A stretch of 64,000 nucleotides of DNA, taken from the NCBI GenBank assembly GCA_038874135.1, contig JAVZCZ010000001.1, positions 751,219 to 815,218 on the forward strand. Direction: 5' to 3'. The stretch is from Candidatus Woesearchaeota archaeon. Lineage in GTDB: Archaea; Nanobdellota; Nanobdellia; Woesearchaeales; 0-14-0-80-44-23. Positions 1 to 42,585 of the stretch are shown in pieces (positions within the stretch are counted from its first letter, which is position 1; each line of letters starts with the position of its first letter). The notes beneath the pieces are model-generated. The model saw nothing but the letters and a program-made list of their open reading frames with translations. It ran no database searches and had not been told where the DNA came from. Made by a program: the position numbers and the translations under genes.

Positions 1-3000
1 TGCTCATACTCTTCTAACTACTTGGAAGTGCAGTGCTCAGATGAGCAAGCCTATGGCAATGCCTCTACATATTTTTACATATTTGAACTTCCATCCGTGA
101 ATACTTACGAACCGAACGATTCTGCAATAATAAACTCTTCCTCATTCCAATTTGAATATGAAATTCTGCCAGAATCGTCAGCATACTTAGTTAAAAACTG
201 CGCCCTTATATTAGATGGAACTTCCTGTAACTCTACTGATTTACCTCACAATGGAACAAACAGCATAAGCTGCCCGTTCAGTGAAGGATCTCACACTTGG
301 AAGGTGCTCTGCACACTCATAGGCTCAGGCCAGGAAACTATTGAAAGTCAAGAAAGAGGATTCTTTGCAGATTATAGTCCTCCAAATATAAACCTAATTA
401 ATCCAAACCAGCCCGCTTACAATTCAGATGTTCCCATTGAATTTAACATTACAGACTCTGCCTCTTCATCATTCAATTGCACAATATCCGGCATTCCAGC
501 ACCATTCAATCTCAGCTCACTTGTTTCCTACTCTTCTAAGCTTAACCTTCCAGTAGGAAAATATAATCTAACGATTTCCTGCTCAGATGCTGCTGGAAAT
601 TCTGCATATACTTGGCAAGAATTTGAACGAATAAATCTTTCAGTTTCAACTGACAAAAAATATTATATTCCTATGGAAAATGTGTTTATAACGCTGAACG
701 CTCCTCCTTCCCAAACAAATATCTCAGTTTCAAAAGGCAATTTCACACTGTCCAAAACAACAACTCCACCATATCCAATAGTCTACATCTTCACATCCTC
801 AAACGAGCCTGGAGATTACCTGGTGCAGGCATTTACAACATATAACAACATAACATTCACTGCCAACACCTCATTCTCAGTCAATATAACTAGAAACCTT
901 ACACTTTCAATATCAGCTAACACCACAACAGCTGAGCCCGGAGTAAGAATCCTATTCTATTCTAATGTTTCAGGAAACCTCACTCCTGTTACATACTTGT
1001 GGGACTTTAATAATGATAACCTTCCCGAAAGCAGCCTTCCAAATACCGAATACTCTTTCTCACAGCCTGGAAGATACCTCGTAACTTTAAAAGTGAACGA
1101 CTCATATTCCTCCGCCTCAGCTTCAATAAATATAACAGTGCTCTCCAGAGCAAATTTGAGCATTACAGTTCTTAACAGGCTTGGAGAACCTCTCGCTGGA
1201 GCAAACATCACGCTAGGCAACACATCTGCCATAACCAACTCCTCTGGAGCAGCAGTCATGCAGAATCTGCTTCAAGGCACATACCCTATAAATGTAACAG
1301 CCACAAATTACAATTCGTATTTCAACACAGTGGACATTTCCTCTAACAAAAACATAACAATATATCTACAAGAGCTCACAGAAGAGCCGGAAATCCTAAT
1401 AACAGAACCAACAGATGGTGCTACAATAACATCCCTTCCAATTACAATAAGGTTCAAAGCAAATTTATCATATCCTACAAACTGCACACTATACAAAAAT
1501 GAACAACAATCCTGGTGGGAACAGCTTTCTCAGATGGCTGTTACAAACAACACTGAAAATACCTTGTCAGTAGCCAATCTCACGGACGGGCAAGTTCTTC
1601 TAAGAATCGTATGCACAGATGTATTCGGAAACAGTGGCACCCAACAGATTTCCCTTAACATCAGCACACTACCAAAAGAGCCGCAATATCCAGAACTAGA
1701 CCAGGCAGAAGAAGAGCTCTACACAAAACAGGAATACTACAACAGCATAGGACCAGCACAGCTTGAAGCAGCTCAACTATTAGGTATACCTGATATGCTC
1801 TCAGATGCTCAGAACCGATTAACACTCGCCAGGAGGGATCTCTCAGACCTCTCATATTCAAAAAAGAGCCCGGAGGAAAAAGAAGCAAGAAAGAGTGAAA
1901 TAATATCTGACGCCGTTTCACGAATCAATGCAATTCCAGATTCAATACAGGTGCTATCTTCTTATGAACAGATACACTATCCAACTCAGCAAGAGCTGGA
2001 AAAGGTGGCAGCTCCCTTCATCTCAGCTAATTCTCTGAAGATAGACCAGCGGACATTCCTAAGAGCAAACTCTCCACTTATTGAGCTAATAACAATAAAT
2101 ACAAAAGCGTTTTCAATAGTGCTAAATTATAACGGGGAGAGCCGAGAAGTGTCTGTAATAAAGCACTCTGTACAGCTCAGCCAACAGCTTAACGAATCAG
2201 CAATCTCAAACCTGATGTTAATACTCAATATTCCAAAACAGATAGCTGACTCAGCAGCAGGAATCACATTTATGGACAGGTATGGACAAAAAGTAGTCAA
2301 AGATGATCCAATCTTTTCACTTCCTGTTACAAGCGAAATAGTTTACCAAATAAACAAGAGCATTGATGCAAATTCTGCTTCTGAGATATCACTCCTCTTA
2401 GTAAGCAAGAGTGCTTCAGTTTCAATACCAGGCATATCGGGACTGGCAGTTTCACAGACAAGGTATTCCATCTGGCCTTTCAATCTCATTGGAGGAAAAA
2501 TTGGCTCCAGTTTAGCTATTCAAATAGTAATACTTGTAGTGCTTCTTACCATATACTTAGTATACACCCTTCAGCCGGAAATAATAAGCAGATCAGCAGA
2601 TGCACTAGGAAATCATATCAAAAATCTCAGACCTCGCTCGGAAAATAGGATGAAGCAAATAGTCCATGCTGAGAAGTCAATTCCCACAACACTACAGAAC
2701 AATTTAGCTAGCATGCCGCAGCAACAAACATACTCACCCATTCAACAACAAGTAGTTCCCATAGGGCCTGGAATGCAGCATTCTTACATTGCTTACAGAA
2801 TGCAACGGGCTCTTCAGTTGGCAGAGCAGAACAACTATGAGGAAGCTTCAGCCGCATATTATGAATTAAAATTCCTTTATAACACGCTCAGCTCTCACGA
2901 AAAATCCCTACTTTATCCGCAATTATTAAACCTGGGACACAAGCTTAACATTTCCTATATCAGACAGTTAGTTTCAGAAGCAAAGTTAAAGGTTAATTCA

Positions 3001-3222
3001 GACTACCAAGAAGCCCTTGAACTTTATGATAAGATCTCCAAGGCATACTCACTGCTCCCTACAGAGTTCAAGTATGCAGTGTTCTCTGAATGTCTTGAGC
3101 TTCTAAACATTCTTGAAAGGGCAAGAAAAAACCAGAACAACTCTGAAAATCAAGCAGTAACCTTCAAAAAGAAAAAAAAGAGGTGCAGGTCAAAATCACA
3201 CGCCAAGGCGAGAAGGGCATAA
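1..3222 (+). CDS. 5'-partial bitopic surface glycoprotein: Ig-like/beta-sandwich ectodomain with many N-x-S/T sequons, one TM helix (LAIQIVILVVLLTIYLVYTL), Gln-rich/TPR-like cytoplasmic tail
   Basis: The frame is open from window base 1; the track's TTG 'start' at 22 is not a real start. It has NCxL..G...W.V.C.D repeats of the same family as the giant proteins downstream, a single hydrophobic helix near aa 835, and then no sequons. Its stop overlaps the next gene. Confidence 0.8.
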   Translation, partial: CSYSSNYLEVQCSDEQAYGNASTYFYIFELPSVNTYEPNDSAIINSSSFQFEYEILPESSAYLVKNCALILDGTSCNSTDLPHNGTNSISCPFSEGSHTWKVLCTLIGSGQETIESQERGFFADYSPPNINLINPNQPAYNSDVPIEFNITDSASSSFNCTISGIPAPFNLSSLVSYSSKLNLPVGKYNLTISCSDAAGNSAYTWQEFERINLSVSTDKKYYIPMENVFITLNAPPSQTNISVSKGNFTLSKTTTPPYPIVYIFTSSNEPGDYLVQAFTTYNNITFTANTSFSVNITRNLTLSISANTTTAEPGVRILFYSNVSGNLTPVTYLWDFNNDNLPESSLPNTEYSFSQPGRYLVTLKVNDSYSSASASINITVLSRANLSITVLNRLGEPLAGANITLGNTSAITNSSGAAVMQNLLQGTYPINVTATNYNSYFNTVDISSNKNITIYLQELTEEPEILITEPTDGATITSLPITIRFKANLSYPTNCTLYKNEQQSWWEQLSQMAVTNNTENTLSVANLTDGQVLLRIVCTDVFGNSGTQQISLNISTLPKEPQYPELDQAEEELYTKQEYYNSIGPAQLEAAQLLGIPDMLSDAQNRLTLARRDLSDLSYSKKSPEEKEARKSEIISDAVSRINAIPDSIQVLSSYEQIHYPTQQELEKVAAPFISANSLKIDQRTFLRANSPLIELITINTKAFSIVLNYNGESREVSVIKHSVQLSQQLNESAISNLMLILNIPKQIADSAAGITFMDRYGQKVVKDDPIFSLPVTSEIVYQINKSIDANSASEISLLLVSKSASVSIPGISGLAVSQTRYSIWPFNLIGGKIGSSLAIQIVILVVLLTIYLVYTLQPEIISRSADALGNHIKNLRPRSENRMKQIVHAEKSIPTTLQNNLASMPQQQTYSPIQQQVVPIGPGMQHSYIAYRMQRALQLAEQNNYEEASAAYYELKFLYNTLSSHEKSLLYPQLLNLGHKLNISYIRQLVSEAKLKVNSDYQEALELYDKISKAYSLLPTEFKYAVFSECLELLNILERARKNQNNSENQAVTFKKKKKRCRSKSHAKARRA

Positions 3223-5564
3223 TTTGTGCTCTGCTTTTAGGAATTGTAACTATAATCTTAGGTAGTTATGCCTGCGCTTTGGAATTTTCACCATCTTCAA
3301 TTAACGAAGTGCTTTCTATTAACAAGTTTGTTCAGAAAAACATAACTTTGAAGAATGAACTCTCCTATCCGGTAAGGATTGCTCTGGTGCCCTCTTCTAA
3401 CATTAGCGATTTATTAGACATCACTCCAAATTCTATTGAAATCGGGGCAAGAGAGTCAAAGAATGTTCTGGTTACAATATACGGAAATGTTGATCCTATA
3501 AAATTTATTAATCGCTCGTATTACATCTTTAATGGCTTCATAAAGCTTGAAGGAGCTAACGCTCAAATACCTACGGACTTGATGGTCACTAATGGAACAA
3601 TAAACCTGCCCAGCAGCATGGTGCTTTCAGCATCGGCAGGTAAGGATTATTTCACTAAATCAGAAAATCTCTCTTTTATAATTGTTGTAACGAATCTTAT
3701 GACAGGCTCAAAACCAAATGTTACTCTTTTCTATTATTTCCTAATTGATAAAAACTCAGAAATTCCCGTTGGGAACGATTCCTTCATAATTACTACTTCA
3801 AAATCAGTTGTAAAGGAATTCATACCAATGTCTTCAATACCTGATGGCACCTATACTTTCAGGGTTGTAATGTCTTATGCAGATAAGAAGAGTGTTGCTG
3901 ATGTGCCCTTCAGGATATCAACCCCATTTATATTCAGAACATTCTTAGGTATAGCTGTATGGCAGTATATACTCGGAGTGATTGCCTTAATAATAATTGG
4001 CTTGTTAGTATACTGGCGAAGGAAGCGTGTTTTGGCTTCTCGTCGTTATGGTGTGAGTGTGGATTTGCGTAGTTTTCCTTCTTCTGGTAGGCTTGTGCGT
4101 TTGGGTAAGTTGGCGGAGTATGGGCGTGATTTTTGGTTTGATTTGGATGGTTTGACTACGCATTGTATTGTGGCTGGTGCTACTGGTGGTGGTAAGACTG
4201 TTGCTGCTCAGGTTTTGGTGGAGGAGGCTTTGAAGGCTGGTGTGGCTGTGGTTGTTTTTGATCCTACGGCTCAGTGGAGTGGTTTTTTGAGGCCTTGTTC
4301 TGATAAGGGTATGTTGTCTTTGTATTCGGGTTTTGGGTTGCGTCGTTCTGATGCTCGGGGTTTTCCGGGTAATGTGAGGCAGGTGTTGGATGCTCGTGAG
4401 GTTTTTGATGTTAGGCGTTTTATGCGTCCTGGTGAGATTGAGATTTTGAGTTTGAATAGGTTGAGGCCTGAGGAGATTGATGTTTTTGTGGCTAATACTG
4501 TTAGGAGCGTGTTTGATGCGGGTTTGGATGAGTGTCGTGAGTTGAGGTTGTTGTTGGTTTATGATGAGGTGCATAGGTTGTTGCCGCGTTTTGGCGGTTC
4601 TGGTGAGGGTTTTGTGCAGATTGAGAGGGCTTGTCGTGAGTTTAGGAAGTGGGGTGTTGGTGTTGTTTTGATTAGTCAGGTTTTGTCTGATTTTGTTGGT
4701 GAGATTAAGGCTAATATTAATACTGAGGTTCAGATGAGGACTCGTGATGAGGGCGATTTGGAGCGTATTCGTGTTAAGTATGGTGATGCTTATCTTAGGG
4801 GTCTTGTGAGGGCTAGTGTGGGTACTGGTATGTTTGAGAATCCCGGTTATAATGGTGGTCGTCCTTTTTTTGTTAGTTTTAGGCCTTTGTTGCATAGTGT
4901 GGTTCGTTTGTCTGATGCCGAGTTGGGTGAGTATAATAGGTTGAATGGGGTGTTGGATGATTTGGAGTTTTGGATTGGCGAGTTGGAGCGTTTGGGTGTG
5001 GACGTGTTTGATTTGAGGTTGGAGTTGAAGTTGGCTTGGGATAAGTTGAGGGTTGGGGGGTTTGGGATGGTGGATGTTTATGTTGAGGGTTTGAGGCCTC
5101 GCGTGTTGGGCGAGTTTGAGCGTTTGGGGAGGCCTGTTCCTAAGCGTGAGGTTAAACGCCTTTCAGATGAGGAGCTTGCAAAGCAGAGGAAGCTGGCTGA
5201 GCAGAGCCGTGCAGAGTTTATAAAAAAGATGGGCATTAAAGAGCAGCAGTCCAAGCAGGAGGAAAAGAAGGAAGAACACATCGTGCAGCCTTACACTTTT
5301 GATAATGGTGCAATGGTTTCGGAGCTTAAGGAGTTGAAAGACGCTATAGAACCTATGAGTGCTGACATCCTCAGAAGCGCGTTGAGTGGAAACAATAAGC
5401 TTTCTGATTGGATAAAGAATGAGCTTAAGAATGAGCAGCTTGCCTCTGAAATTGAGAAGGCGAAGACGAAAAAGGAGATTCTTGATGCAATAACTGCTGA
5501 ACTTGATAAAGCAGAAAAGAGCAGTGAGAAATCTGGAACTGATAAAGGCCAAAAGTCTAAGTAG
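3183..5564 (+). CDS. Receptor-ATPase 1: signal/anchor, ~250-aa glycosylated ectodomain (two beta-sandwich domains), TM helix, cytoplasmic HerA/FtsK-superfamily (DUF87-like) P-loop ATPase, C-terminal adaptor domain
   Basis: GTG start with K/R n-region then a hydrophobic stretch. Sequons occur only before the TM helix (GIAVWQYILGVIALIIIGLLVYW). Walker A is AGATGGGKT, Walker B is LLLVYDEVHRL, and VVLISQ is a sensor-like block. The C-terminal ~65 aa match the HVNFERND-type domain of ORFs 26656..27150 and 35335..37869. Confidence 0.85.
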   Translation: MQVKITRQGEKGIICALLLGIVTIILGSYACALEFSPSSINEVLSINKFVQKNITLKNELSYPVRIALVPSSNISDLLDITPNSIEIGARESKNVLVTIYGNVDPIKFINRSYYIFNGFIKLEGANAQIPTDLMVTNGTINLPSSMVLSASAGKDYFTKSENLSFIIVVTNLMTGSKPNVTLFYYFLIDKNSEIPVGNDSFIITTSKSVVKEFIPMSSIPDGTYTFRVVMSYADKKSVADVPFRISTPFIFRTFLGIAVWQYILGVIALIIIGLLVYWRRKRVLASRRYGVSVDLRSFPSSGRLVRLGKLAEYGRDFWFDLDGLTTHCIVAGATGGGKTVAAQVLVEEALKAGVAVVVFDPTAQWSGFLRPCSDKGMLSLYSGFGLRRSDARGFPGNVRQVLDAREVFDVRRFMRPGEIEILSLNRLRPEEIDVFVANTVRSVFDAGLDECRELRLLLVYDEVHRLLPRFGGSGEGFVQIERACREFRKWGVGVVLISQVLSDFVGEIKANINTEVQMRTRDEGDLERIRVKYGDAYLRGLVRASVGTGMFENPGYNGGRPFFVSFRPLLHSVVRLSDAELGEYNRLNGVLDDLEFWIGELERLGVDVFDLRLELKLAWDKLRVGGFGMVDVYVEGLRPRVLGEFERLGRPVPKREVKRLSDEELAKQRKLAEQSRAEFIKKMGIKEQQSKQEEKKEEHIVQPYTFDNGAMVSELKELKDAIEPMSADILRSALSGNNKLSDWIKNELKNEQLASEIEKAKTKKEILDAITAELDKAEKSSEKSGTDKGQKSK
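4021..5176 (+). repeat. Copy 1 of an exactly duplicated 1156-bp cassette encoding the complete cytoplasmic HerA/FtsK-like ATPase module
   Basis: It is identical to 8201-9356 at a constant offset of 4180. The embedded antisense ORFs 4005..4895 and 8191..9075 translate identically. Identity begins immediately after the TM helix codons and ends at ...KRLSDEEL. Confidence 0.9.
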
Positions 5565-5740
5565 ATTTCTTATACCTTAACCAACAATGTGGTATTTATA
5601 AACTTAGATTACTTAGTATGCATTTATACACATACACTATTTGTGTCACATTTAAAAATTAGTATATAAAATGAAAATATTTATATATCAATATACATAT
5701 TTAGTATGAGTTTGTATTCAAAGACCTTGAAAAGGCTTTT
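5565..5740 (+). promoter_or_regulatory. AT-rich intergenic promoter/operator region upstream of the RHH pair
   Basis: A TATA-like AAAATTAGTATATAAA lies near 5655-5670. TTAGTATG/TAGTATA motifs recur three times (about 5620, 5655, 5701). This is the only sizeable non-coding gap inside the 26-kb gene string. Confidence 0.45.
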
Positions 5741-5752
5741 TTGGGACCCGAA

Positions 5753-5941
5753 ATGCGCAGTACGCCTGAGAAGCATGGCTCAAAGAGAATAACCATAACC
5801 ATAAGCAAGGACCTTTTAGACTTCTTAGATTTAGCTGTGGAGAACAGGCTGTTCGCAAGCAGAAGTCATGCACTTGAAGTCTTAGTAAGGCGCAGGATGG
5901 AGTTTGAGAATGAAGCAAAGAATTACAATTACATTGGATAG
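5753..5941 (+). CDS. Ribbon-helix-helix (CopG/Arc/MetJ-like) DNA-binding protein; alternative TTG start at 5741
   Basis: KRITITISKDLLDFLDLAVENRLFASRSHALEVLVRR is a beta-strand of alternating hydrophobics followed by two helices, the classic RHH layout. An AT-rich promoter-like region lies upstream. Confidence 0.65.
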   Translation: MRSTPEKHGSKRITITISKDLLDFLDLAVENRLFASRSHALEVLVRRRMEFENEAKNYNYIG

Positions 5942-6101
5942 TGAATGCCTGGCATGGGTTGATGAAAAGGTAAAGAATAGAAGCTTTGCTAATCGGAGCC
6001 ACGGCTTTGAATTTTTAATAGCGCGATTCAAGGAGCGCCAAGAACTTCAGAATCTTCTCAACTCGCGAAATTCAAAGGAGGAAGACTTAAAACATGAATA
6101 A
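5910..6101 (+). CDS. Second ribbon-helix-helix protein, tandem paralog of the previous one; ATG at 5910 preferred over the track's TTG at 5904
   Basis: QRITITLDSECLAWVDEKVKNRSFANRSHGFEFLIARF matches the RHH pattern. It overlaps the upstream RHH gene by ~32 nt, and its stop overlaps the ATG of the downstream ATPase gene (ATGAATAA). Confidence 0.65.
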   Translation: MKQRITITLDSECLAWVDEKVKNRSFANRSHGFEFLIARFKERQELQNLLNSRNSKEEDLKHE

Positions 6102-9100
6102 AAATCCTACCTTCAGGATACTGGAACGGGACAGGCAGCTGGAAAGGAGAAGACAGCAGCTGTACATCCTATTAGGCATCTTAGGAGTTTTACTAGCAGT
6201 TGGTGTTATACTTCTGATAAGAATGTTCATAGGATACGCAGTTCTGGAAAGCAGGGCTGGCACAATAACACAACTTAATATACAGCTCAGATACTCAACA
6301 CACATATGGGCTGGATTTTACGGATTGGCATTCCGCGTTCCCGGATACACTGAGCAGCAGTCTGCAGTTGCAGTCGGCGGCACAGTCTTCTTGCAGCACT
6401 TAGTATTTGACTGCTTAAAAACTACAGACGGCAACATTCCTGAGGTATATGCCAGTACTTCAAGAAACATTGACTGGAATTCACTCCAGCCAGCAACTCC
6501 AGACTTGATTGACAGCTACCTACAAGTAGATCCTTCAGATATAACCTCTGCTTCAAACACATTTACAGAAACAATGTCAATACTCTTAGGAGACAGAGAA
6601 ATCACAAATATTGCTGCAACGCACACCAAAAAGTTCGGAGTTCCGGACAGCACGGACTTTGATATAGGCTTCTTAAAAGATTCGTTGGGAAATCTCGTAT
6701 TTGTAACCCATGTAACTCCAACTTATACCAAAGGATTTAACAACCAAACTATAAACTACCAAATGCTCCTTCCAGTACAAGCAGGAACAGCTCCAGTATA
6801 CTACTTCTTCTCAGACCCATATGACGAGTGCCAAGCAGGGCTTGAAGCTCTCAAAAATGCTACCATATTCGGAAGAGCCATAGACAATGCAACAGGCCTT
6901 CCACTTGAAAATGTTACAGTTAATCTTCATACTGCTACAGTTCTTACCAACTCTACAGGAGACTATTACATAGCAATATTTAACGGCACCTACACCCTAG
7001 TAGCTTTCAAGCCGGGATATTACACCTTTGTTGCAACAAACATCACTCTCCCAGCTGACAATCTGTCTACACCTCAATCTGAAAATATTGTCGAATTTAA
7101 TATATCCCTCATTCCCAACCCTGGAAACCCAACTGGACTCGGAAACCTAACTGGCACTGTAACTGATAAAGACTTCGGAATACCCCTCTATAATGTAACA
7201 GTGTATGTAAACGGCAGAATCGCTAAGACAAACATTACAGGCCAATACCTACTTGAACTGCCAGCAGGAAATCATTCTCTTATAGCAATGAAGGAAAACT
7301 ACAGAACATACTACACTCCAAATGTAACTATACTGCCTGGAAACACCACTGAATTTAATTTCAGTATGGAATATGCAGAGCCAGAAATAAAAGAAACTCC
7401 TGGATATCCGCTAAATACCTTCGTTTCCAACCTACTCAAACAGGCAGTGCAGAGGCCTCAAATAATACTCACTCATAAGATTGATACAAAAGAGATATTT
7501 GAAACATTAAAAGTTGGCTCATATGTCCAGCGCTCATTCAATATAACGAGTTACAGGCCTGCCGAGTCCAAAGTTGAGTTTGAAGTCATAGGAAGTGCTG
7601 CACAGCTGGTAAAGGTTGACAAGAGCAGCTCAATAATACCTCCAAGGGGTGCAGAAAACTTCACCCTTACAATTCTAGCCAATGTGCCTCCAGGCATATA
7701 TACCGGAACATTCCTAATCAAAGGAGACCTTGAAGACAGAATCCCGATAAAGATAGTTGTTTATGAGAAGGATAGACTTCCAATAGAGGCTCTTCTCCTA
7801 GAAGTAGTGCCAATAAAAAAGATAATCAGCCCAGGAGAACTATTTGAATATAAGGTCAGCATGACAAACCTGCTGAGGGACACCCCATACAACATCACCC
7901 TTTCATACAATATCACCTCGCGCTCTTCAAATCTTACTATTCCCGTTGAAGAAGAGACGAGACTCTTGGAAACTCAGCTTTCCTACCTTAAGTATTACAA
8001 GCTTCCCAAAGACCTGCCAGAAGGAGAATACTTCCTTGAAACTAGAGCGGAATTCTTAGAACTATCAACAAACACAAAATCGCTATTCATAGTTAAGAAG
8101 CCAATTTACATGTATGCATTATTCGGAATACTTCCCCTCTGGCAGCTTTTCATAATAATAGTTTTCACCTCCCTCATGACCTTCGCAGGATTAATGTATC
8201 GGAAGCGTGTTTTGGCTTCTCGTCGTTATGGTGTGAGTGTGGATTTGCGTAGTTTTCCTTCTTCTGGTAGGCTTGTGCGTTTGGGTAAGTTGGCGGAGTA
8301 TGGGCGTGATTTTTGGTTTGATTTGGATGGTTTGACTACGCATTGTATTGTGGCTGGTGCTACTGGTGGTGGTAAGACTGTTGCTGCTCAGGTTTTGGTG
8401 GAGGAGGCTTTGAAGGCTGGTGTGGCTGTGGTTGTTTTTGATCCTACGGCTCAGTGGAGTGGTTTTTTGAGGCCTTGTTCTGATAAGGGTATGTTGTCTT
8501 TGTATTCGGGTTTTGGGTTGCGTCGTTCTGATGCTCGGGGTTTTCCGGGTAATGTGAGGCAGGTGTTGGATGCTCGTGAGGTTTTTGATGTTAGGCGTTT
8601 TATGCGTCCTGGTGAGATTGAGATTTTGAGTTTGAATAGGTTGAGGCCTGAGGAGATTGATGTTTTTGTGGCTAATACTGTTAGGAGCGTGTTTGATGCG
8701 GGTTTGGATGAGTGTCGTGAGTTGAGGTTGTTGTTGGTTTATGATGAGGTGCATAGGTTGTTGCCGCGTTTTGGCGGTTCTGGTGAGGGTTTTGTGCAGA
8801 TTGAGAGGGCTTGTCGTGAGTTTAGGAAGTGGGGTGTTGGTGTTGTTTTGATTAGTCAGGTTTTGTCTGATTTTGTTGGTGAGATTAAGGCTAATATTAA
8901 TACTGAGGTTCAGATGAGGACTCGTGATGAGGGCGATTTGGAGCGTATTCGTGTTAAGTATGGTGATGCTTATCTTAGGGGTCTTGTGAGGGCTAGTGTG
9001 GGTACTGGTATGTTTGAGAATCCCGGTTATAATGGTGGTCGTCCTTTTTTTGTTAGTTTTAGGCCTTTGTTGCATAGTGTGGTTCGTTTGTCTGATGCCG

Positions 9101-9636
9101 AGTTGGGTGAGTATAATAGGTTGAATGGGGTGTTGGATGATTTGGAGTTTTGGATTGGCGAGTTGGAGCGTTTGGGTGTGGACGTGTTTGATTTGAGGTT
9201 GGAGTTGAAGTTGGCTTGGGATAAGTTGAGGGTTGGGGGGTTTGGGATGGTGGATGTTTATGTTGAGGGTTTGAGGCCTCGCGTGTTGGGCGAGTTTGAG
9301 CGTTTGGGGAGGCCTGTTCCTAAGCGTGAGGTTAAACGCCTTTCAGATGAGGAGCTGCAGAAGGAAAAGGAGATTGCTATGCAGGAACATGAGAAAGCAA
9401 AACAGCAGGAAGCAGGACAAACTTCACAAAATTCAGATTCCAAGACAGAAACTTCCCAAATTCAAAACACAAAAGTTGAAGAGCAGCCCAGCCAAAATGA
9501 AAAGGCCGAGAACCAAGAGAATGCAAAATCCTCAAATGAAAATAAAATTAAAAGAGTAAGGGAGGGTAAAAAGCAGAGGATGAGGAAATCAGCAAGTTCG
9601 GAAAAAAATAATAAAAAAAGAGGTGCTAAAAAATGA
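6094..9636 (+). CDS. Receptor-ATPase 2: N-terminal signal-anchor, ~640-aa glycosylated ectodomain (two carboxypeptidase-regulatory-like domains plus two membrane-proximal beta-sandwich domains), TM helix, cytoplasmic HerA/FtsK-like ATPase identical to that of ATPase 1, K/E/Q-rich low-complexity tail
   Basis: RRRQQLYILLGILGVLLAVGVILLI is the anchor. GRAIDNATGLPLENVTVNLHTATVLTNSTGDYYIAIFNGTYTLVAFKPGYY and a second similar unit are CarboxypepD_reg-like. The second TM helix is LFIIIVFTSLMTFAGLMY. Nucleotides 8201-9356 are identical to 4021-5176. Confidence 0.85.
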   Translation: MNKNPTFRILERDRQLERRRQQLYILLGILGVLLAVGVILLIRMFIGYAVLESRAGTITQLNIQLRYSTHIWAGFYGLAFRVPGYTEQQSAVAVGGTVFLQHLVFDCLKTTDGNIPEVYASTSRNIDWNSLQPATPDLIDSYLQVDPSDITSASNTFTETMSILLGDREITNIAATHTKKFGVPDSTDFDIGFLKDSLGNLVFVTHVTPTYTKGFNNQTINYQMLLPVQAGTAPVYYFFSDPYDECQAGLEALKNATIFGRAIDNATGLPLENVTVNLHTATVLTNSTGDYYIAIFNGTYTLVAFKPGYYTFVATNITLPADNLSTPQSENIVEFNISLIPNPGNPTGLGNLTGTVTDKDFGIPLYNVTVYVNGRIAKTNITGQYLLELPAGNHSLIAMKENYRTYYTPNVTILPGNTTEFNFSMEYAEPEIKETPGYPLNTFVSNLLKQAVQRPQIILTHKIDTKEIFETLKVGSYVQRSFNITSYRPAESKVEFEVIGSAAQLVKVDKSSSIIPPRGAENFTLTILANVPPGIYTGTFLIKGDLEDRIPIKIVVYEKDRLPIEALLLEVVPIKKIISPGELFEYKVSMTNLLRDTPYNITLSYNITSRSSNLTIPVEEETRLLETQLSYLKYYKLPKDLPEGEYFLETRAEFLELSTNTKSLFIVKKPIYMYALFGILPLWQLFIIIVFTSLMTFAGLMYRKRVLASRRYGVSVDLRSFPSSGRLVRLGKLAEYGRDFWFDLDGLTTHCIVAGATGGGKTVAAQVLVEEALKAGVAVVVFDPTAQWSGFLRPCSDKGMLSLYSGFGLRRSDARGFPGNVRQVLDAREVFDVRRFMRPGEIEILSLNRLRPEEIDVFVANTVRSVFDAGLDECRELRLLLVYDEVHRLLPRFGGSGEGFVQIERACREFRKWGVGVVLISQVLSDFVGEIKANINTEVQMRTRDEGDLERIRVKYGDAYLRGLVRASVGTGMFENPGYNGGRPFFVSFRPLLHSVVRLSDAELGEYNRLNGVLDDLEFWIGELERLGVDVFDLRLELKLAWDKLRVGGFGMVDVYVEGLRPRVLGEFERLGRPVPKREVKRLSDEELQKEKEIAMQEHEKAKQQEAGQTSQNSDSKTETSQIQNTKVEEQPSQNEKAENQENAKSSNENKIKRVREGKKQRMRKSASSEKNNKKRGAKK
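8201..9356 (+). repeat. Copy 2 of the 1156-bp ATPase cassette
   Basis: See copy 1; it is a direct repeat in the same orientation. Confidence 0.9.
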
Positions 9637-10457
9637 AGTCAAAAAAATCAGTTAAGTATAGAGCGAGAGTTCACAATAAGGCTAACTCAAGCAAGAAAGA
9701 TTTGAGAAAAAAGAAGGTTCGCATTGAGAGAAAAAATAGCACTAAAACAATTAGTAAAGAAACATCACCTAAAAAATCCAAAGCTTACTTAAAAAAGCGA
9801 TTTGGCAAGATTGATAACAGAGTTATTAAAAATAAAAATAATAAAGTAAAACCAGGAGCTTTAAAGCACAGAAAAAAAGAGAAGAAGCAGAATGTTCAAA
9901 AAAGAAGAAAAGCAATGCAAAAAAAGCCAGCGCCTGAAAACGCAGCCGCAGCAACCAACCAAGTACAGACAAATACGACTTCAACAGCTCAGCAGGCAAA
10001 TTCTCAAATTGAAACACATTCAGATGTGGAAGCGCTTCAAAAAGAATACTCAGATATCAACAGCTATCTGGTTCAGCGAAGAAAAGCGGGAGTTGACACC
10101 TTCATACAGGAACTGAAACTTTTTTCAATACCGTCAAAAATTCAGCTTTTAAAGGCAGAATACTCAAAAGATTATGCTGACAAGATTAGAGTTCAACTTA
10201 ATGAGATTAGAGAAGAGTTAGAAAAAGCAGAACCTCAACCGACCCCCCTTGACCTTCCTAAAGTTCAGCCGAACCAGCCGAATCCATTCTCAGAGCAACA
10301 GCTCACAAGTCAGAATAATAATCATCCCTTAACGCAGGATGCAGAAAACTATTCAAAAGAACTAGCTGAGAAGCGCCTTTCAAATAAAATAAAAAATTCT
10401 CTGAGAAATGCTTCCAAAAAAGTTATGTCCATATTCAAAAAAGGAGGTGGAAATTAG
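9633..10457 (+). CDS. Lysine-rich basic protein (histone H1-like low-complexity N-terminal half) with C-terminal coiled-coil region
   Basis: Its ATG overlaps the upstream stop (ATGA). The N-terminal ~100 aa are about 35% K/R (KKSVKYRARVHNK...KKEKKQNVQKRRKAMQKK). The C-terminal part has heptad-like periodicity. Internal alternative-frame ORFs (9296..9559, 9892..10116) are artefacts of the A-rich sequence. Confidence 0.6.
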   Translation: MKSKKSVKYRARVHNKANSSKKDLRKKKVRIERKNSTKTISKETSPKKSKAYLKKRFGKIDNRVIKNKNNKVKPGALKHRKKEKKQNVQKRRKAMQKKPAPENAAAATNQVQTNTTSTAQQANSQIETHSDVEALQKEYSDINSYLVQRRKAGVDTFIQELKLFSIPSKIQLLKAEYSKDYADKIRVQLNEIREELEKAEPQPTPLDLPKVQPNQPNPFSEQQLTSQNNNHPLTQDAENYSKELAEKRLSNKIKNSLRNASKKVMSIFKKGGGN

Positions 10458-11615
10458 ATGTTCAACCTTTTCAAACGGAAAAACTCTGAAGAAGTTCCCA
10501 ATCAACAATCAGCTAACGAAGATCTGACAGCTCCAGCACAAACCCAGCAAACTGCTACTACGCAAGGACAGGAAAACCTCGCTGCAGAATTAATGAAGAT
10601 TAAGGCAGAAGTGGAAGCATTTTCAGATGTAAGAAAAGCCACAAATGAGAAACTTACAAGACTAAGCGAGCAGATTGGAGAGCTAAGAGCAATGATTGCA
10701 GACAGAGACAAGGTGATGAATCAGATAGAGGTTAAAGCTACAAAGGCAGCAGATCTCGTAGCCACAGTTAAGCCTGAAGAGCAGATGGTAGAAATAAAGC
10801 GTCAGGATGCAAAACTTGAAGCGTTTAAAGCATCTCTGGAGAGCAATGAACTTTTGATGAAGAGAGTTTTAGACGAACTTAAAGAGATGAGAACAAAGAT
10901 AGCTTCCTTCCGCGGAATTGAGGAACTAATCAACCTTAACAATGAAGTAAAATCTGAAATAATTGAAATAAAAAAGGTTGAAGCAAACATACAAAAGCAT
11001 GCAGACAAGGTAGAAACGATATTTGCAGAGGTTCAGAAAAGATTCGTTGACTTTACAAAAATTGATGATAGGATAGCATCCAACACGAAGCAAATAGCAG
11101 AGCTATCAAAGAACTTGGACGGAGTGAAGGCAACTGCCTCGGCAGCAGCCACAAAAAAGAGTGTAGATGAACTAACTTCCAAATTCTTAGAAATGAAAGA
11201 CCAACTCTCAGAACTGGTTTCAACAATAAACAAGCGCCTCTCCTTAGTGGAGAAGAACAATTCTGCAGCATTTGAAGCTTTTGAAAAAGCGATAATGCAC
11301 AAGTTTAAACTTTCAAAAGAGGAAGTAGCTGTATTTAAAGAGCAAGTACAGCAGAATCAGCAAGCCCAGCCAACTCAGCAAATATCCCAGCCGCAGGATG
11401 TCTCTCAAAAGAGCAATACTCAAGAGCAAAATCTTCAGACCAGTGAAGCACCCGAAGCTCTACCACAGCCGCAAGCCTCTCAGCAGGTTCAGCAGCCGCA
11501 GAGTGAGCCAAATGAGCAAGACTCAAAAAAGCCTGACAGCAGCATTCAGAAAGAGATAAGAGAAGCAGCCAAGTTTGCTAAAAGGATAAAAAGCAAAAAA
11601 AGAAAGAAGAAATGA
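10458..11615 (+). CDS. Long coiled-coil protein with Gln-rich ends and K-rich C-terminus (scaffold/filament-like)
   Basis: It starts directly after the upstream stop. The central ~250 aa have a continuous heptad pattern (ELMKIKAEVEAFSDVRKATNEKLTRLSEQIGELRAMIADRDKV...). It has no TM segment. Confidence 0.65.
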   Translation: MFNLFKRKNSEEVPNQQSANEDLTAPAQTQQTATTQGQENLAAELMKIKAEVEAFSDVRKATNEKLTRLSEQIGELRAMIADRDKVMNQIEVKATKAADLVATVKPEEQMVEIKRQDAKLEAFKASLESNELLMKRVLDELKEMRTKIASFRGIEELINLNNEVKSEIIEIKKVEANIQKHADKVETIFAEVQKRFVDFTKIDDRIASNTKQIAELSKNLDGVKATASAAATKKSVDELTSKFLEMKDQLSELVSTINKRLSLVEKNNSAAFEAFEKAIMHKFKLSKEEVAVFKEQVQQNQQAQPTQQISQPQDVSQKSNTQEQNLQTSEAPEALPQPQASQQVQQPQSEPNEQDSKKPDSSIQKEIREAAKFAKRIKSKKRKKK

Positions 11616-14600
11616 ATAGCTCCAAATTTTTCAAACTAATAATTTTAGGGTTTATAATAGTGGTAGGTCTCCTAAGCCAGTCAAAAGCAGACAGCATCCA
11701 AGCAGTATATGGCAATACTCAACTCATACTCACAGACAAGCCGCAGTACACTTTGGGAGAAAGTGTAAAGATAAACATACTAATCCCAACACAACTGCTT
11801 TCAGGAATGAATGTTGAAATAGATACCCCTGCTAGCAGATACCAACTTCTTGATTCAAATCTTTCAGAAGTATACTTCACTCCACAGCAAGAGGGAAACT
11901 ATACTATTAAAATATCTTCAGCAGCTGGGAATTTAATATCATCAACTTCTTTTTTAGTACTAAGAAAATCTGAAGTTGAAATTCCCTCATCAGATAGCAC
12001 CAGCCCCAAATTGTCTGCAAAAAACTGGAAGGGAAATTATCAAAAAATACTAAGACAGGAATACCTACCTGCCAACAAGAAGCTTTCAATAGAATTCTCA
12101 GAACTTTCAATACAGAAGATTGATTTTTACAATGTTTCAAATCCGAATGGAGAACTGAAAATAGAAGATGTGCCTCTATCTTATGTTGAAAACTTTTCAG
12201 GAAGAGCAGCGCGCTCATTTGCAATAGACCCAACTTTATTAGAATTTACTTATGCTGAAATTTACTTTACTGCAACTGCCAACGAGCTGTGGAAGTGCCG
12301 CGAATACGACTTCTCAACTAGAAGCTGCGCGGGAAGATATGTAAAAATAATGGACACCATTCCGGGCAGGCAGTATATCTTACACCTCACCAAAGAGGAT
12401 CCTCTCTACACAGAAGTATGGAACAATATAACCTGCACCTGCCAGAATACAGGCCCAAATAACGGCTGGGCATACTGCGAGGTATTCTGTCCGGTCAACA
12501 TTCCAATACCAACAGACGCTTTAGATGGATTCATTCAGATACTAGGCTATAATGTCACCATCACTACATCCTACCCGGCAGGCGGGTACATCACGCCTAA
12601 TTCTGGAATGCACTACGGCTTCTTTGATAGGGACCAGCTGAAAAGCAACGGAAACGAATCCCTAATAGGCTATGTGGCTTATGATGGCCCCGGAACAACC
12701 ACTCAGCTCATATACAACACCAGCATGGCACCGTCTGGAGCATATGCATTTAACAGGGCAAACTGCCCGACTTGGACCTCAGGATACTGCACCTGGTATG
12801 TATTTCTCAACTCAACTGCAAAGAGCAGCAAGGTTAAAAGGCCTGTGACTGTTAATATAACTCTTAATAGCATAAACTGGACTTGGAATTATACAACCCC
12901 TGCGCCTTCAAACATTACAATAAACCTTACAAGTCCAGCAGACAATACTGCCCTCGGATTTAGAAATGTGAATTTTTCCTATATTCCCATTTCAAGTTCT
13001 CCAGTTTCAAACTGCAGCCTTTTTATAAACATTACAGGTAGTTGGAATGCAGTTGCCACAAGCTACTCAATACAAAATAATTCTGTCAACAGTATAAATT
13101 ATACTCTTTCTAACGATGGCGAATACCTCTGGAATATCAGGTGTTATGCTGGAGACATCAGCAGTTTTGCACTATACAACAGAACTCTAATAGTTGATAC
13201 CGCACCCCCTTCAGTCACACTTCTTTCTCCTAACAATAACTCATTTTCTAACACATCTATAATCTCTTTCATTTACAATGTGAGTGACAACTTTAACATT
13301 GCTAACTGCTCATTAATACTGGACAATGTTCTAGTTGCAACTTCATACGCAGTTACTAAATATGTCCCGCAGAATATTACCTACGCGTTATCTAATGGCG
13401 TCCACAACTGGAGCATAACTTGTTTTGACTTTGCAGGCAATTTTAACATTTCCGAAAGTAGGATCATAAATATATCCGCAGTACCTACCATCTGGGACAG
13501 AAGGTGGTATGAAACTTCAACATCAGATTATACCTCTACAGCAAACATTTCTCTCGCAAATTTAAGGGACTCAACAGAAAATTCCATATCCGTTTCAGTT
13601 CCAGTTTCAACATCTTACACCCTTGTAGATGCGATTTCTCCATACATTGGAAGCAACGGGGCATTCGTTCCCAAAGGCACAAATGTATCTTTCAGCGGAG
13701 AATTCTCTACCAGCCCAAATGCAAAGGGAGTTATAAGCTGGTTCTTATACCAGACTGAGGGTTCAACAAAAAACCTTCTCTGTAATTACGGAAATGGCGG
13801 CTCGCTAGGCGCACCCATCTCATCAACAACAACTGCAAGCTGCACTATACAAAATGACACTCTAATGCTCCCAACAAATAGATTACAACTTATTATAATC
13901 TACTATAACAATTTCAAAAATTTAGTGTCTGTAACCCACTATTGGGATGGCACTAGGCTCTCGTTCGTTGAATTTTCAAACTTTACTACCTTAGGAACAT
14001 TAAGCGTTGACCTCTCCTATCCAGACACGGATATAACAGTGGGCCAGAACGAACTGTTCAATATGAGCTGCACAGTTAACTGCTCAGGAGGAAGCTGTCT
14101 TAACACACTCGTCTATGCACAGTATAACACGAGCTCAACGGCATTCACCAACATAGGAAGCTCCGGAAATCTCATTCTTAACACTGGAGAGACAAATCCC
14201 CATTCTCTCGGGAATATCAACCAGAGCTACACTACAACATTCTTAATAAAAGGAAACCTTGCATCAACAAACAACATAAGATGCGTAGCAGTTTCAAACT
14301 ATTCAAACGCTACAGGCCAGATTATAAGAAGGGTAGTTGTGGGGGACACTACGCCTCCAACAGTAAGTCTTGGAAATCCAGCAAACTTTTCTTGGCTGAA
14401 GAGTAAAACAGTAACAATCTATTACACGCCCTCAGACAACAGCGGAATTACTAACTGTTCAATATACTTGAATGATATTTTGAATTATACTCTTAATTCA
14501 GTTCCGAACGGGATTGAGCAGAACTTCACATTCCATAATCTTTCAGACGGACTTTACAATTGGACTGTAGCATGTACTGACAATTCGGCACTAACTACCA

Positions 14601-17600
14601 GGGCAGCTGAAAAATGGTTCTATATAGACACACAGAATCCCTCAGTAGAATTGCACCAGCCGGAAAACTTCATAGTTCTAGGAAGCAGCCTTGTGTTGTT
14701 CAACTTCACTGCATATGACGAAATGGCTTTCAACCTATCATGTAACCTGACAGCTGATAATATAATCAGAATTTCCGGCATAAACTCTCTAAACAGTACA
14801 CCTACAATAGTTAATTACACCCTTTCTATGGGGCAGCACTACTGGAATGTCACCTGTAGAGACCTTGCAGGAAACATTAACACGAGCGAGACTAGAACAT
14901 TTAATATAACAAACACTCCTCCTGAAGTTACCCTCATCTCCCCTCCTAACAACTACTGGGATAGAATAGGCAACATAACATTCATATTTAATGCCACAGA
15001 CACAGGCCTAATTTCAAACTGCTCACTAATAATAAATGGCCAGCTGAACCAGACTAAAAATTCAACTTTCTTAACTAACGGCATAAACAACTTTACTATT
15101 CTAAATATGGAATCGGGAGTTTATCTTTGGGAAGTAAACTGTACTGATGAGGGAAACCTGAGCACAATAGCAGGACCTTTCACGCTAAATGTTGATAAGA
15201 GCGTACCTTCTGTTCAGCTCGTATTCCCATCAAACTACTACAACTCCTCAGCTTCCTCTATTGTTCTGCAATTCATAACTACAGATGCTCATTCAGCAAA
15301 CCTCTCCTGCAACTTAACAATTGATGGCATTCTAAATTCAACAGACATAATAGCCCAAAATAATAGTTTAGTCTCACAGCCCATAACCTTCTATGATGGA
15401 ATTCACAATTGGAGTGTCTCCTGCTCTGATCTTGCTGGAAACCTGAATTCTACAAACACCTGGTATTTCAACATTTCAGAAAAACCTTCAGTATCGCTAA
15501 GCAGTCCTGCACCTAACGCCTGGACTAATGGTAATGTCACTTTCACATTTACAGCGTCTGACAATGACGGGCTTTACAACTGCTCTTTATTAATAAATGG
15601 AGCAGTCTATCAAACAAAGAATTCATCGCAACTTACAAATGGCGGACAGAACAACTTCACTGTAACAAATTTGCTTGAAGGAATAAACCAGCAGTGGACA
15701 GTAATCTGCTTTGATTTGGGAATATACAAGAACTTCTACTCACCATCTACAAGAATATTCCATGTGGATAAAACGCCTCCAGCAATAACTCTTAACTACC
15801 CTGCTGATTCAGCTCAGATAAAACAGAAGAATGTCAGCTTTAATTTCAGCGCCTCAGATAACTTCGCTTCTAACCTCTATTGCAACCTGTCCATAAACGG
15901 CCAGATTAACACTTCTGAAATAGCTGTTCAGTCAGGAAGTTCAGTTATCGTGAATGTTTCAGGATTTCCTAACGGTTTATACTACTGGAATGTCTCCTGT
16001 AGGGATTATGCTTACAATGTGAACTGGAGCGAGACAAATTCTTTTAATGTTTCAGTTCCTCCAGAGGTGTTTTTAGAATACCCCCTTGAAGGGCAGTGGG
16101 ACAATTCTGAGAATGTAACATTTTATTACTTAGTAACATCAAATGCAGAGTTACAGTCATGTTCTCTCATAATTAACGGGCAGTTAAATCAGACTGACAA
16201 TTCTCCAGTTAGTTCAGCATACAACAATTTTACCATTTTCCTAATGCCTGAAGGCTATTACACTTGGATGGTAAACTGCACTGATTCATATTGGCTAACC
16301 GGTTCTTCAAATTTGAGGAACCTCACCATTGACAGACAAGCTCCTTGGATAGTGCTAAATTCTCCTTCTAATTCTTCAATTGTTGACTCTAACTATGTAA
16401 CATTTAACTGGACTGCTTTTGACATGATGGCAGATAATATAAGCTGTGACCTATACGTAGATGATTATTTAAGAGAATCAGAAATATATTCTAAAAATGG
16501 AACACCTACCACTAGAACATACATATACTCTGACGGCACCTACTATTGGAATGTTTCATGTCGCGACCCTGCCTATAACATTAATTGGAGCCAAACTTAT
16601 AATTTCACTGTTGAGGCACCTCCAAATGTCACTCTCATAAGTCCTTCTAACTATAACTGGAGCACCGCTTATAGTATAACTTTTGCTTACTTACCTCAAG
16701 ACCCAATAGGGATAAGACAATGCACACTCTACTTTGATGGAAGCCCTAATCAGACTGATTACGACATAGAAGCTAACCAGCTGAATTATTTCACTATAAA
16801 TCCTATAAGTGAGGGAGTTCATACTTGGAGTGTTAACTGCACTGATTCAGATTGGAATACTTACATGCCGCCAGCCTTTACTCTTTATATTGACCGCACC
16901 CCGCCAACAATTGTTATAGAATCTCCTGTCAACCTGTCTGTTTTTTCAATTCCAGATGTAACCTTCAACTTTACTGCGATTGACATGTTATCAGATAATA
17001 TTTCGTGCAAAATAACTATAAATGGTAATTTGAACAGAACTATAACAGTACAGAATGATACTCCTTACAATTTCACGATTGTAAAAATGTCAGATAATAT
17101 CTATTATTGGAATGTGTCCTGCTCAGATTTAGCCGGAAATGCAAATGCTAGCAACACCATGCAGTTTACTGTAAGCGCTATTCCTTCAATAATTCCCATA
17201 TCGCCTGCCAACTTAAGTTGGAGTGAAGTATCACAGATAACATTTTACTTTAATGCAACCGACAACGATGGGCTTTCTAATTGCACTTTACTAATTAATG
17301 GTGTAGCAAATCAGACAAAATCTTCAGGTTTAATAAATGGTGGCATAAACAATATCACTTCTACTCTTACTGAAGGAGAATATGATTGGAGTATCGCTTG
17401 TACAGATTCGGGCATATTCTATAATCTCAACTTGTCCGCTCCTCAAAAGATTTTTGTTGATCTAAATTCCCCGCTGATTGTTCTTTACGCCCCTCTCAGC
17501 GGTAGCATTACTGAAAATAATTCTCCAGTTCTAAATTTTACTGCTTCAGACACGATGTACCCAATTATGTATTGCAACATTACTCTTGACGGAAAATTGA

Positions 17601-42279: not shown

Positions 42280-42585
42280 TTACTCATATGCGGTTAACTT
42301 CTTGTTCTTCGCCCTTCTAAGCTTTTCTCTTATTAGGTCAATCTTCTGGCTGCAAGTTGGGCATAGCATTATTATGTTTGAGAACTCATCTTTTCCCCCG
42401 CTGGCAATAGGAATTAGATGAAAGAAGTGGCACTCCTTCAGCCTTACGGGAGTTTTGCAGTTCGCGCATCTTAAGGTTATTTTCTGCTCGTGTCCACACT
42501 CAGAACATCTTATAATACTATTCTCCAGAAACTCTAAGATTACTGAGCGCTTCACCTGCTTGCTCATACTTAGATATACTTGCAC
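42280..42585 (-). CDS. Small HNH-type endonuclease with N-terminal zinc ribbon
   Basis: CSECGHEQKITLRCANCK forms a Cys4 ribbon. HFFHLIPIASGGKDEFSNIIMLCPTCSQK matches the HNH pattern HH..P...GG.D...N...LC..CH. Confidence 0.55.
   Translation of the reverse strand: MQVYLSMSKQVKRSVILEFLENSIIRCSECGHEQKITLRCANCKTPVRLKECHFFHLIPIASGGKDEFSNIIMLCPTCSQKIDLIREKLRRAKNKKLTAYE

Follow-up and report, generated by a model that had tools for sequence, protein, structure and literature searches.

The window analysed here is a 64,000-nucleotide stretch of contig JAVZCZ010000001.1 (positions 751,219 to 815,218; assembly GCA_038874135.1) from a Candidatus Woesearchaeota archaeon. Near its left end lie two neighbouring genes that both encode membrane-anchored ATPases of the HerA/FtsK type and differ in their extracellular domains (Table 1). 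ATPase-1 comprises a signal and ectodomain of ~250 amino acids (aa), a transmembrane (TM) helix, the ATPase and a 128-aa tail, whereas in ATPase-2 an ectodomain of ~680 aa with CarboxypepD_reg domains and a TM helix precede that ATPase module, and the tail has 92 aa. The tract shared by these genes is termed cassette A; a second tract, cassette B, is shared by the gene for a giant surface protein and a paralogous gene downstream, and a third, cassette C, lies outside the window.

Table 1 Features of the window, in positions of the whole 64,000-nucleotide stretch (ORF, open reading frame; MAG, metagenome-assembled genome; RHH, ribbon-helix-helix)
Feature	Position	Strand	Basis or remark
Upstream surface-protein gene, 3′ part	22–3222	+	Pfam PKD and CarboxypepD_reg; 1172 aa when complete (L001/L004)
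ATPase-1, 793 aa	3183–5564	+	ORF list; 793-aa gene also called in NCBI MAGs
Cassette A copy 1, 1156 bp	4021–5176	+	Identical to copy 2; 75% G+T; third codon positions 97% G/T
Small ORF, 62 aa, RHH-like	5753–5941	+	RHH_1 E 0.021, below cut-off; gene called in MAGs
Small ORF, 63 aa, RHH-like	5910–6101	+	RHH_1 E 0.061, below cut-off
ATPase-2, 1180 aa	6094–9636	+	ORF list and Pfam
Cassette A copy 2, 1156 bp	8201–9356	+	Identical to copy 1
Giant surface protein, 2612 aa	18649–26487	+	Carries cassette B copy 1
Cassette B copy 1, 656 bp	19969–20624	+	Identical to 30550–31205; ~72% G+T; third positions 98% G/T
752-aa protein with cassette B copy 2	30160–32418	+	Paralogous to residues 352–705 of the 2612-aa protein
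Cassette B copy 2	30550–31205	+	Identical to cassette B copy 1

Our starting point was a sequence-only reading of this DNA, which had proposed a base-for-base identical ATPase cassette in two receptor genes with unrelated extracellular domains. A repeat finder and string comparison confirmed the identity over 1156 bp, as direct repeats whose starts lie 4180 bp apart, with both copies in frame within their ORFs. Exact identity ends at position 4021 on the left and 5176 on the right (copy 1), where ungapped identity of the flanks drops at once to 17–40%, with ~25% expected for random sequence. In the proteins it begins, as had been claimed, with the first codon after the TM helix (Arg 280 of ATPase-1, Arg 703 of ATPase-2). 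The other end had been placed ~30 codons before each stop, which is wrong; in gene 1 it lies 128 codons short of the stop, and in gene 2 it lies 92 codons short. Ectodomain 1 (residues 39–261) aligns solely to the membrane-proximal part of ectodomain 2 (residues 467–684; 24% identity, E 3e-8), which bears out the restricted relationship described earlier, and at 24% identity the two genes are old paralogues. The two small ORFs between them, designated RHH genes in the sequence-only reading, match RHH_1 only weakly (E 0.02 and 0.06, under the Pfam threshold). Chance or low complexity is ruled out as a source of the repeat by an exact match of this length and by the third-position composition of cassette A (binomial P 2e-94).

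The product of cassette A matches Pfam DUF87 (37.8 bits, cut-off 23.2) and HerA_C (37.4 bits, cut-off 22) and contains the P-loop motifs Walker A (GATGGGKT) and Walker B (VYDE). Conserved among 28 sequences are G52, G55, G57, K58, E182 and D181, the last being near-invariant (at least 90%). An AlphaFold2 model of the ATPase (predicted local distance difference test score 91.8) found its best Protein Data Bank matches by Foldseek in HerA (4d2i, E 8.5e-12), TcpA (6o1w) and FtsK (6t8b). The fold is thus that of HerA/FtsK translocases and TcpA-type coupling proteins, with the TM anchor N-terminal of the ATPase as in the TcpA type. In contrast to those three matches, a large extracellular receptor-like domain precedes the TM helix, and identity to solved structures is 12–19%. 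The family is DPANN-specific: nearly all of its more than 400 relatives come from DPANN archaea and share the architecture, the best of them outside the hot-spring clade described below being 61–64% identical.

The most unusual property of the tract, which the sequence-only reading overlooked along with the second gene pair that behaves alike, is its saturation with G and T. The coding strand of cassette A is 75% G+T (A 171, C 115, G 429, T 441 of 1156) against a window mean of 49%, with a GC skew of +0.5 to +0.8 and an AT skew of −0.3 to −0.56; compared with the DNA outside, G+C is ~47% versus ~40% and G+T 75% versus 49%. By codon position, G+T amounts to 68%, 62% and 97%. Measured in 25-codon windows, third-position G+T steps from 0.24–0.60 to 1.00 at the identity boundary, holds at 0.92–1.00 over most of the tract and is 0.80 in the last window, and all other ORFs of the window lie at 0.40–0.63, including ribosomal protein L10e at 0.57. 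Approximately one codon is used per amino acid (TTG, GGT, GAG, ATT, GTT/GTG, CGT/AGG), the inverse of the genome preference. Third-position frequencies are T.56, G.41, C.03 and A.01 in cassette A and T.79, G.19, C.02 and A 0 in cassette B, with a residue of 14 C and 2 A in the two together; in the genome background, A and T stand above C, and C above G. As single-stranded DNA (ssDNA), this strand of the cassette should have almost no structure according to prediction, with folding energies of −6 to −16 versus −20 to −34 kcal/mol per 300 nt.

Sister lineages share this composition, with third-position G/T of 0.99–1.00 in L010, L011 and L090–L094 and 99% T at the four-fold sites of L011; 77 more distant homologues have ordinary third-position values that track their locus-wide skew. 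Amino acids are affected as well. Relative to the family consensus, 32 single-step replacements in cassette A lead toward G/T-richer codons and 1 leads away, compared with 460 and 403 in 27 control homologues. The main directional replacements are K>R (13), I>V (7) and Y>F (3), and 25 of the 32 correspond to A>G or C>T, while transversions toward G/T outnumber those away from it 7 to 1. Third-position changes that could be polarised on the branches to the window and L090 comprise 29 T>G, 7 G>T, 4 T>C and none to A; transversions within G/T thus exceed transitions nine to one, which shows that the constraint continues to operate. The converted tracts have been driven to the maximum coding-strand G+T that the protein allows, and this state is stable across the clade.

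Opposite the cassettes, the minus strand holds long ORFs of 274–310 aa (4005–4895, 8191–9075, 19867–20799 and 30460–31284) that are codon-aligned with them. A functional antisense gene was considered and rejected: these frames can contain no stop, since NNK (K, keto) reads as MNN on the opposite strand and every stop codon starts with T. Gene calling in assembly L005 was misled in this way within cassette C, where a 77-aa antisense gene was called and the real gene shortened to 400 aa.

Cassette B encodes ~4.4 units of a 50-aa blade-like repeat. Together with its flanks (19819–20418 and 30400–30999) it forms a tandem array of 150-bp units that are 61–64% identical to one another, and the identical G+T-rich core begins and ends within this array, not at a domain boundary. 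The core spans 218 aa; the flanks belong to the same repeat domain, are 55–65% identical between the two genes and lack the G+T enrichment. At either end, the change in composition falls no more than one codon from the identity boundary. Cassette B is therefore an internal control, as gene, transcript and domain family are shared and saturation is found in the converted part alone. A G+T-rich orthologue of the tract is also present in the L092 lineage.

Cassette C (L005:260–1057; also L004:1–1054 and L100:6100–7090) lies ~6 kb upstream of the window, inside the gene for a 590-aa Cys-rich secreted protein. Its third positions reach 1.00 with the same step profile. In L100 and L101 it contains a 183–199-nt exact direct repeat, 558 nt apart, that is absent from L005, and assemblies L004, L100 and L101 have a 100-N scaffold gap inside it.

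Proteins of the locus occur in hot-spring Woesearchaeota MAGs, among them GCA_038731275.1 (99.78% identity to the window, on a 495-kb contig) and several more, as well as in two Logan assemblies; further lineages came from scanning species-representative genomes and from searching metagenomes with a codon-specific pattern. Amino-acid identity of cassette A to the window is 94% in L090, 86% in L094 and 74% in L010, L011, L091, L092 and L093. At the nucleotide level, copies are 100% identical within genomes (window, L001 and L011) and 79–99.8% identical between lineages, and the two copies on metagenome contig Ga0272448 are identical over the 3′ part of the cassette that is available for both. 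Strain L001 differs from the window by 44 single-nucleotide polymorphisms (SNPs) in 19.6 kb; its two cassette SNPs, T>G at 4538 and 4697, are both repeated at the corresponding positions of copy 2 (8718 and 8877). In L011, a 492-kb contig from a Kamchatka MAG, the gene order is the same and the exact repeat is 1240 bp long, with an ectodomain 1 only ~30% identical to that of the window.

As controls, tandem ATPase pairs 4.5–6.1 kb apart in five other DPANN genomes have ATPase domains that are 49–76% identical; the tandem pair is therefore ancient and normally diverges, and its homogenisation is confined to this hot-spring clade. Here, the ATPase modules evolve in concert, being identical within genomes and different between lineages, and their edges are set by the limits of flanking homology. 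The standard mechanism behind such concerted evolution is intrachromosomal gene conversion that recurs between direct repeats. The process is long-running and not a single recent event, because the state has been kept across lineages whose cassettes have diverged to 74% amino-acid identity. The sequence-only reading had argued that ordinary paralogue divergence could not give this pattern, a view supported by identity of 100% within genomes against a difference of 0.2–21% between lineages. Its proposal of recent gene conversion confined to the ATPase module named the right class of event, and only the restriction to recent time fails. Comparison with related genomes of this clade did not turn up divergent ATPase domains lacking a sharp boundary, an outcome that would have spoken against the proposal.

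SNPs between close strains are clustered at three places, with 4 within 12 bp (2984–2995), 6 within 210 bp just after cassette A copy 2 (9354–9564) and 9 within 100 bp upstream of cassette B (19233–19328). These clusters suggest short conversion tracts from other paralogues or local hypervariability.

All four unique junctions (ectodomain 1–cassette, cassette–tail 1, ectodomain 2–cassette and cassette–tail 2) were found in independent assemblies of other samples (China, Kamchatka, Joint Genome Institute (JGI) and Logan), whose contigs end 30–220 bp inside the cassettes. In this sense both copies of cassette A are real, and the repeat exists in the reads of several samples. A de Bruijn assembler given short reads can write one collapsed consensus twice, so that identity of exactly 100%, as opposed to, for example, 99.5%, is unproven.

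If the direct repeats recombined with each other, tail 1, ectodomain 2 and the two small ORFs would be lost, and a gene composed of ectodomain 1, cassette and tail 2 would remain. Contigs L010 and L093 encode just such a chimera, intact. The MAG of L010 also contains a 3276-bp contig, L095, in which the final 85 bp of the cassette are followed by tail 1, a small ORF, ectodomain 2 and the first 100 bp of the cassette. Because this missing loop sits in the same MAG, the L010 chimera is most simply a single assembly pass through a collapsed repeat, and we withdrew it as proof of a deletion isoform once L095 had been found. Contigs L094, L096 and L097 represent the same loop in other samples; L094 (Ga0172366_10013557, 6212 bp) begins and ends with the same 100 bp of cassette sequence, which would fit an assembly cycle and an excised circle alike. 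In the window's own lineage, the assemblies contain canonical junctions only. A phase- or antigenic-variation switch by deletion or duplication, as envisaged from the sequence, is possible in principle and without support in these data, the L010 chimera being most simply explained by its assembly path, while that of L093 may have either origin.

We consider recurrent gene conversion coupled to a strand-specific bias toward keto bases to be the best reading of these observations, and hold it with somewhat better than even confidence. That the composition stems from a conversion-tied, strand-asymmetric bias is inferred from cassette B, whose flanks share gene, transcript and domain and are unsaturated, with the switch falling at the identity boundary. 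In the mechanism proposed, RadA would load on the G+T-rich coding strand and pair it with the template strand of the other copy. Wherever the recipient carried G or T and the donor A or C, a G·T, G·G or T·T mismatch would arise, EndoMS/NucS would cut and the transfer would abort. The opposite case would yield A·C, A·A or C·C mismatches, to which EndoMS would be blind, and the G/T allele would spread; in this way G/T alleles could ratchet to fixation in both copies. The required asymmetry between strands could come from the preference of RecA-family proteins for GT- and TGG-rich single strands, which would also provide positive feedback. Archaeal RadA reportedly has such a GT-rich preference (a finding ascribed to Seitz and Kowalczykowski, 2000). 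A preference of RecA for TGG repeats has been described (PMC3763553), and loss of NucS increases homeologous recombination (PMC5290159). EndoMS cleaves G/T, G/G and T/T best, T/C and A/G less, and C/C, A/C and A/A little or not at all (PMC4838380). Graded cleavage of this kind would lead one to expect T > G >> C > A for the coding strand; the third positions of cassettes A and B match this order despite the genome background. At the 3′ end of cassette A, identity extends 14–25 nt past the G+T-rich part in three lineages, an overrun that might, speculatively, reflect short new synthesis beyond the heteroduplex. The broader proposal, that strand-specific keto-biased gene conversion is an unrecognised evolutionary force in which EndoMS/NucS blindness and recombinase preference make G/T alleles win, is tentative and on balance doubtful.

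Several points count against keto-biased conversion. No NucS/EndoMS gene was found in ~95 kb of annotated genome or in the L098 stretch on the right flank, and the strand asymmetry of heteroduplex formation is assumed. The window lineage has fixed its four T>C changes in both copies, which a strict ratchet forbids; some unbiased conversion must therefore also occur. No second full copy of cassette C was recovered, either in ~100 kb of DNA searched or by protein search, and saturation may thus not require duplication. Cassette C and the T>C changes show that the model picture is incomplete. In addition, the 100% identity and the shared SNPs could derive in part from a collapsed assembly node written twice.

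Among the alternatives, the causal order may be reversed, so that another force enriches the tract in G+T and the resulting recombinogenic DNA is then copied into paralogues and kept homogeneous. Candidate forces are selection for unstructured DNA preferred by RadA and self-reinforcing R-loops on the G-rich non-template strand. This account would accommodate cassette C, which is saturated without a known full second copy and has an internal direct repeat and a structure that varies between assemblies; it also fits the GC skew of +0.5 to +0.8 on the non-template strand, a classic R-loop signature, the identity of the G+T-rich strand with the coding strand in every case, and the affinity of RecA-family proteins for GT/TGG-rich ssDNA together with the weak predicted ssDNA structure. 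We nevertheless consider it unlikely, as no primary force has been identified that stops within one codon in mid-ORF and mid-transcript, selection for efficient recombination would act too weakly on individual synonymous sites to yield 100%, and the canonical G-quadruplex motif is absent from the cassette. The last point also led us to reject a G-quadruplex hotspot, the cassette having no G3+ motif. Less probable again is a purely mutational origin, in which a coding strand exposed at high temperature by recombination, R-loops or replication would accumulate deaminations (C→U, A→hypoxanthine) and depurinations filtered by purifying selection. The change is exactly from amino to keto bases in samples from hot springs, third positions, where transitions are nearly always synonymous, are saturated, and the 25 of 32 directional replacements that are A>G or C>T are as expected. 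Yet transversions also lead toward G/T (7 to 1), and the residual third-position bases are C more than A (14 to 2) although C deaminates far faster; adenine deamination proceeds at ~2–3% of the cytosine rate. Reducing A to 0–1% would take A>G changes at a rate greatly exceeding that of the G>A changes caused when C deaminates on the opposite strand. Within the cassette, SNP density (2 per 1156) is not above background (44 per 19,636), and the same-strand background is skewed the opposite way (G+T 0.40–0.49).

Recent replacement of the module in both genes by a G+T-rich foreign donor, such as a thermophilic ssDNA virus or a plasmid, would explain why its composition is so sharply unlike that of host genes and why TTG, GGT and ATT dominate, which are the rarest or non-preferred synonymous codons in control genes. 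The cassette protein, however, is a member of a chromosomal DPANN family in which more than 400 relatives share its architecture, orthologous saturated cassettes occupy the same place in lineages diverged to 74–94% identity, and three unrelated cassettes would each need an in-frame insertion. No cassette matches were found in viral contigs, phage records or plasmid records, and no recombinase was found at the cassette boundaries among the ORFs listed and Pfam-scanned. Foreign replacement is thus already largely refuted, and we give it very little credence. Equally slight is the chance of an assembly artefact, whether one real copy was duplicated or two diverged copies collapsed to one consensus. 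Short-read contigs do break at the cassette, chimeric and loop contigs exist (L010 and L093–L097) and cassette C has scaffold gaps; against this, the four distinct junctions recur across independent assemblies, copies with frequent differences would be resolved at k ~100–127 and the composition anomaly is independent of copy number. Translational selection for G/T-ending codons (G34/C34 tRNAs), or for an unstructured or RNase-resistant mRNA segment, is the least credible. It would suit the use of almost one codon per amino acid, but codon usage is ordinary in the remainder of the same ORFs, in L10e and in every other gene, the domains encoded by the cassettes are unrelated (a cytoplasmic one in one case, extracellular ones in two), and amino-acid content is shifted too. 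The codon bias of highly expressed genes was rejected on the same values of L10e and the other ORFs (0.40–0.63), and replication-strand skew was rejected as the same-strand background is slightly A+C-rich. Glycosylase correction of G·T mismatches to G:C predicts a strand-symmetric GC bias and was likewise rejected.

Some other DPANN loci display strong amino/keto skew locus-wide, over 5–13 kb, with low G+T in L068, L055 and L066 and high G+T in L078, L086 and L041. The coding strand of L068 is ~30% G+T and its ATPase has a third-position G+T of 0.19. These locus-wide skews (L068, L078 and others) were set aside as an account of the cassettes, to which they are not specific. Strong amino/keto skew is thus a wider trait of the DPANN group.

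The remainder of the window offers context for the cassettes. The gene for the 1172-aa surface protein is the first of a module in which ATPase-1 is the last, and the GTG start of ATPase-1 overlaps its 3′ end by 40 nt (3183–3222), in agreement with MAG annotations; the overlap suggests translational coupling inside the module. Two giant surface proteins (11612–18652, 2346 aa; 18649–26487, 2612 aa) consist of Ig-like modules every 561–576 bp that are 60–72% identical, with dense N-x-S/T sequons and precomputed Pfam matches to CARDB and Big domains. Their C-terminal ends are related (18416–18485 and 26236–26305, 71%). Archaeal housekeeping genes elsewhere in the window include NOG1, topoisomerase, L10e and aIF5B. 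Between the NOG1 GTPase and topoisomerase genes, a small minus-strand ORF (42280–42585) has HNH/HNH_5 domains in MAG gene calls and may be a free-standing HNH endonuclease. Just past the right end of the window (L098:3592–5352 and 9240–9668) lie the DNA-damage genes Endo_dU (PF01949), Pyr_excise pyrimidine-dimer glycosylase and a PDDEXK nuclease.

Ribosomal RNA (rRNA) operons and tuf genes are familiar examples of concerted evolution. Long-lasting conversion of prokaryotic paralogues is also described for tandem mtrA copies in methanogens (PMC4632066) and in a survey (PMC6053082). The present case resembles these systems in its within-genome identity, its partial, sharp-edged tract and its long persistence. 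It differs in a composition at a strand-specific extreme, with synonymous sites fixed to G/T and amino acids shifted; those systems are not known to show such an extreme. GC-biased gene conversion in eukaryotes and bacteria favours G:C pairs strand-symmetrically (PMC4450053). It is alike in being a selection-like bias that is confined to recombination, overrides weak purifying selection and drives third positions to extremes. It does not account for the cassettes, where the bias is strand-specific: G and T are favoured on one strand, C being depleted (115 of 1156) and T enriched (441).

The Borrelia vls and Neisseria pilE/pilS systems are likewise surface-protein loci with direct-repeat cassettes and segmental conversion, and Borrelia vls has a conserved, strong coding-strand GC skew. 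Those systems diversify from silent donors, whereas here conversion removes diversity between two expressed genes, one converted module is a cytoplasmic ATPase and no variant isoforms were seen. DPANN diversity-generating retroelements also place near-identical repeats with skewed nucleotide usage in or near surface-protein genes. Such an element was rejected here: the copies are identical and not adenine-variable, both A and C are depleted, the tracts are 0.65–1.2 kb long compared with retroelement repeats of ~0.1 kb, and no reverse transcriptase was found in the window, among 37 Pfam-scanned ORFs that include all those of at least 150 aa on both strands except the antisense by-products of the cassettes. 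Within a limited library, our literature search found no description of local strand-specific G+T saturation of converted tracts. Partial gene conversion and long concerted evolution in prokaryotes are known, and the saturation is the new part.

Partial conversion of paralogues is thus ordinary; synonymous sites that are 97–100% G/T, clade-wide and in unrelated genes of one island, are not. Tracts of this kind have practical consequences, as they break short-read assemblies into chimeric or loop contigs, give rise to long stop-free antisense ORFs that mislead gene callers and would distort codon-based tests for horizontal transfer or selection. If the bias does arise from conversion, it would show how a repair enzyme, through its specificity, reshapes codon usage and even the make-up of proteins. 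Frequently converting tracts would then be recoded to NNK-like codons, their proteins would drift toward Arg, Val, Gly, Phe and Leu, and the recoded tract would become a steadily better recombination substrate. If confirmed, keto-biased conversion would be new in kind as a mechanism and would stand beside GC-biased gene conversion as its strand-specific counterpart. For the biology of DPANN archaea, the locus represents an island of surface-protein and translocase genes whose modules are actively exchanged among genes.

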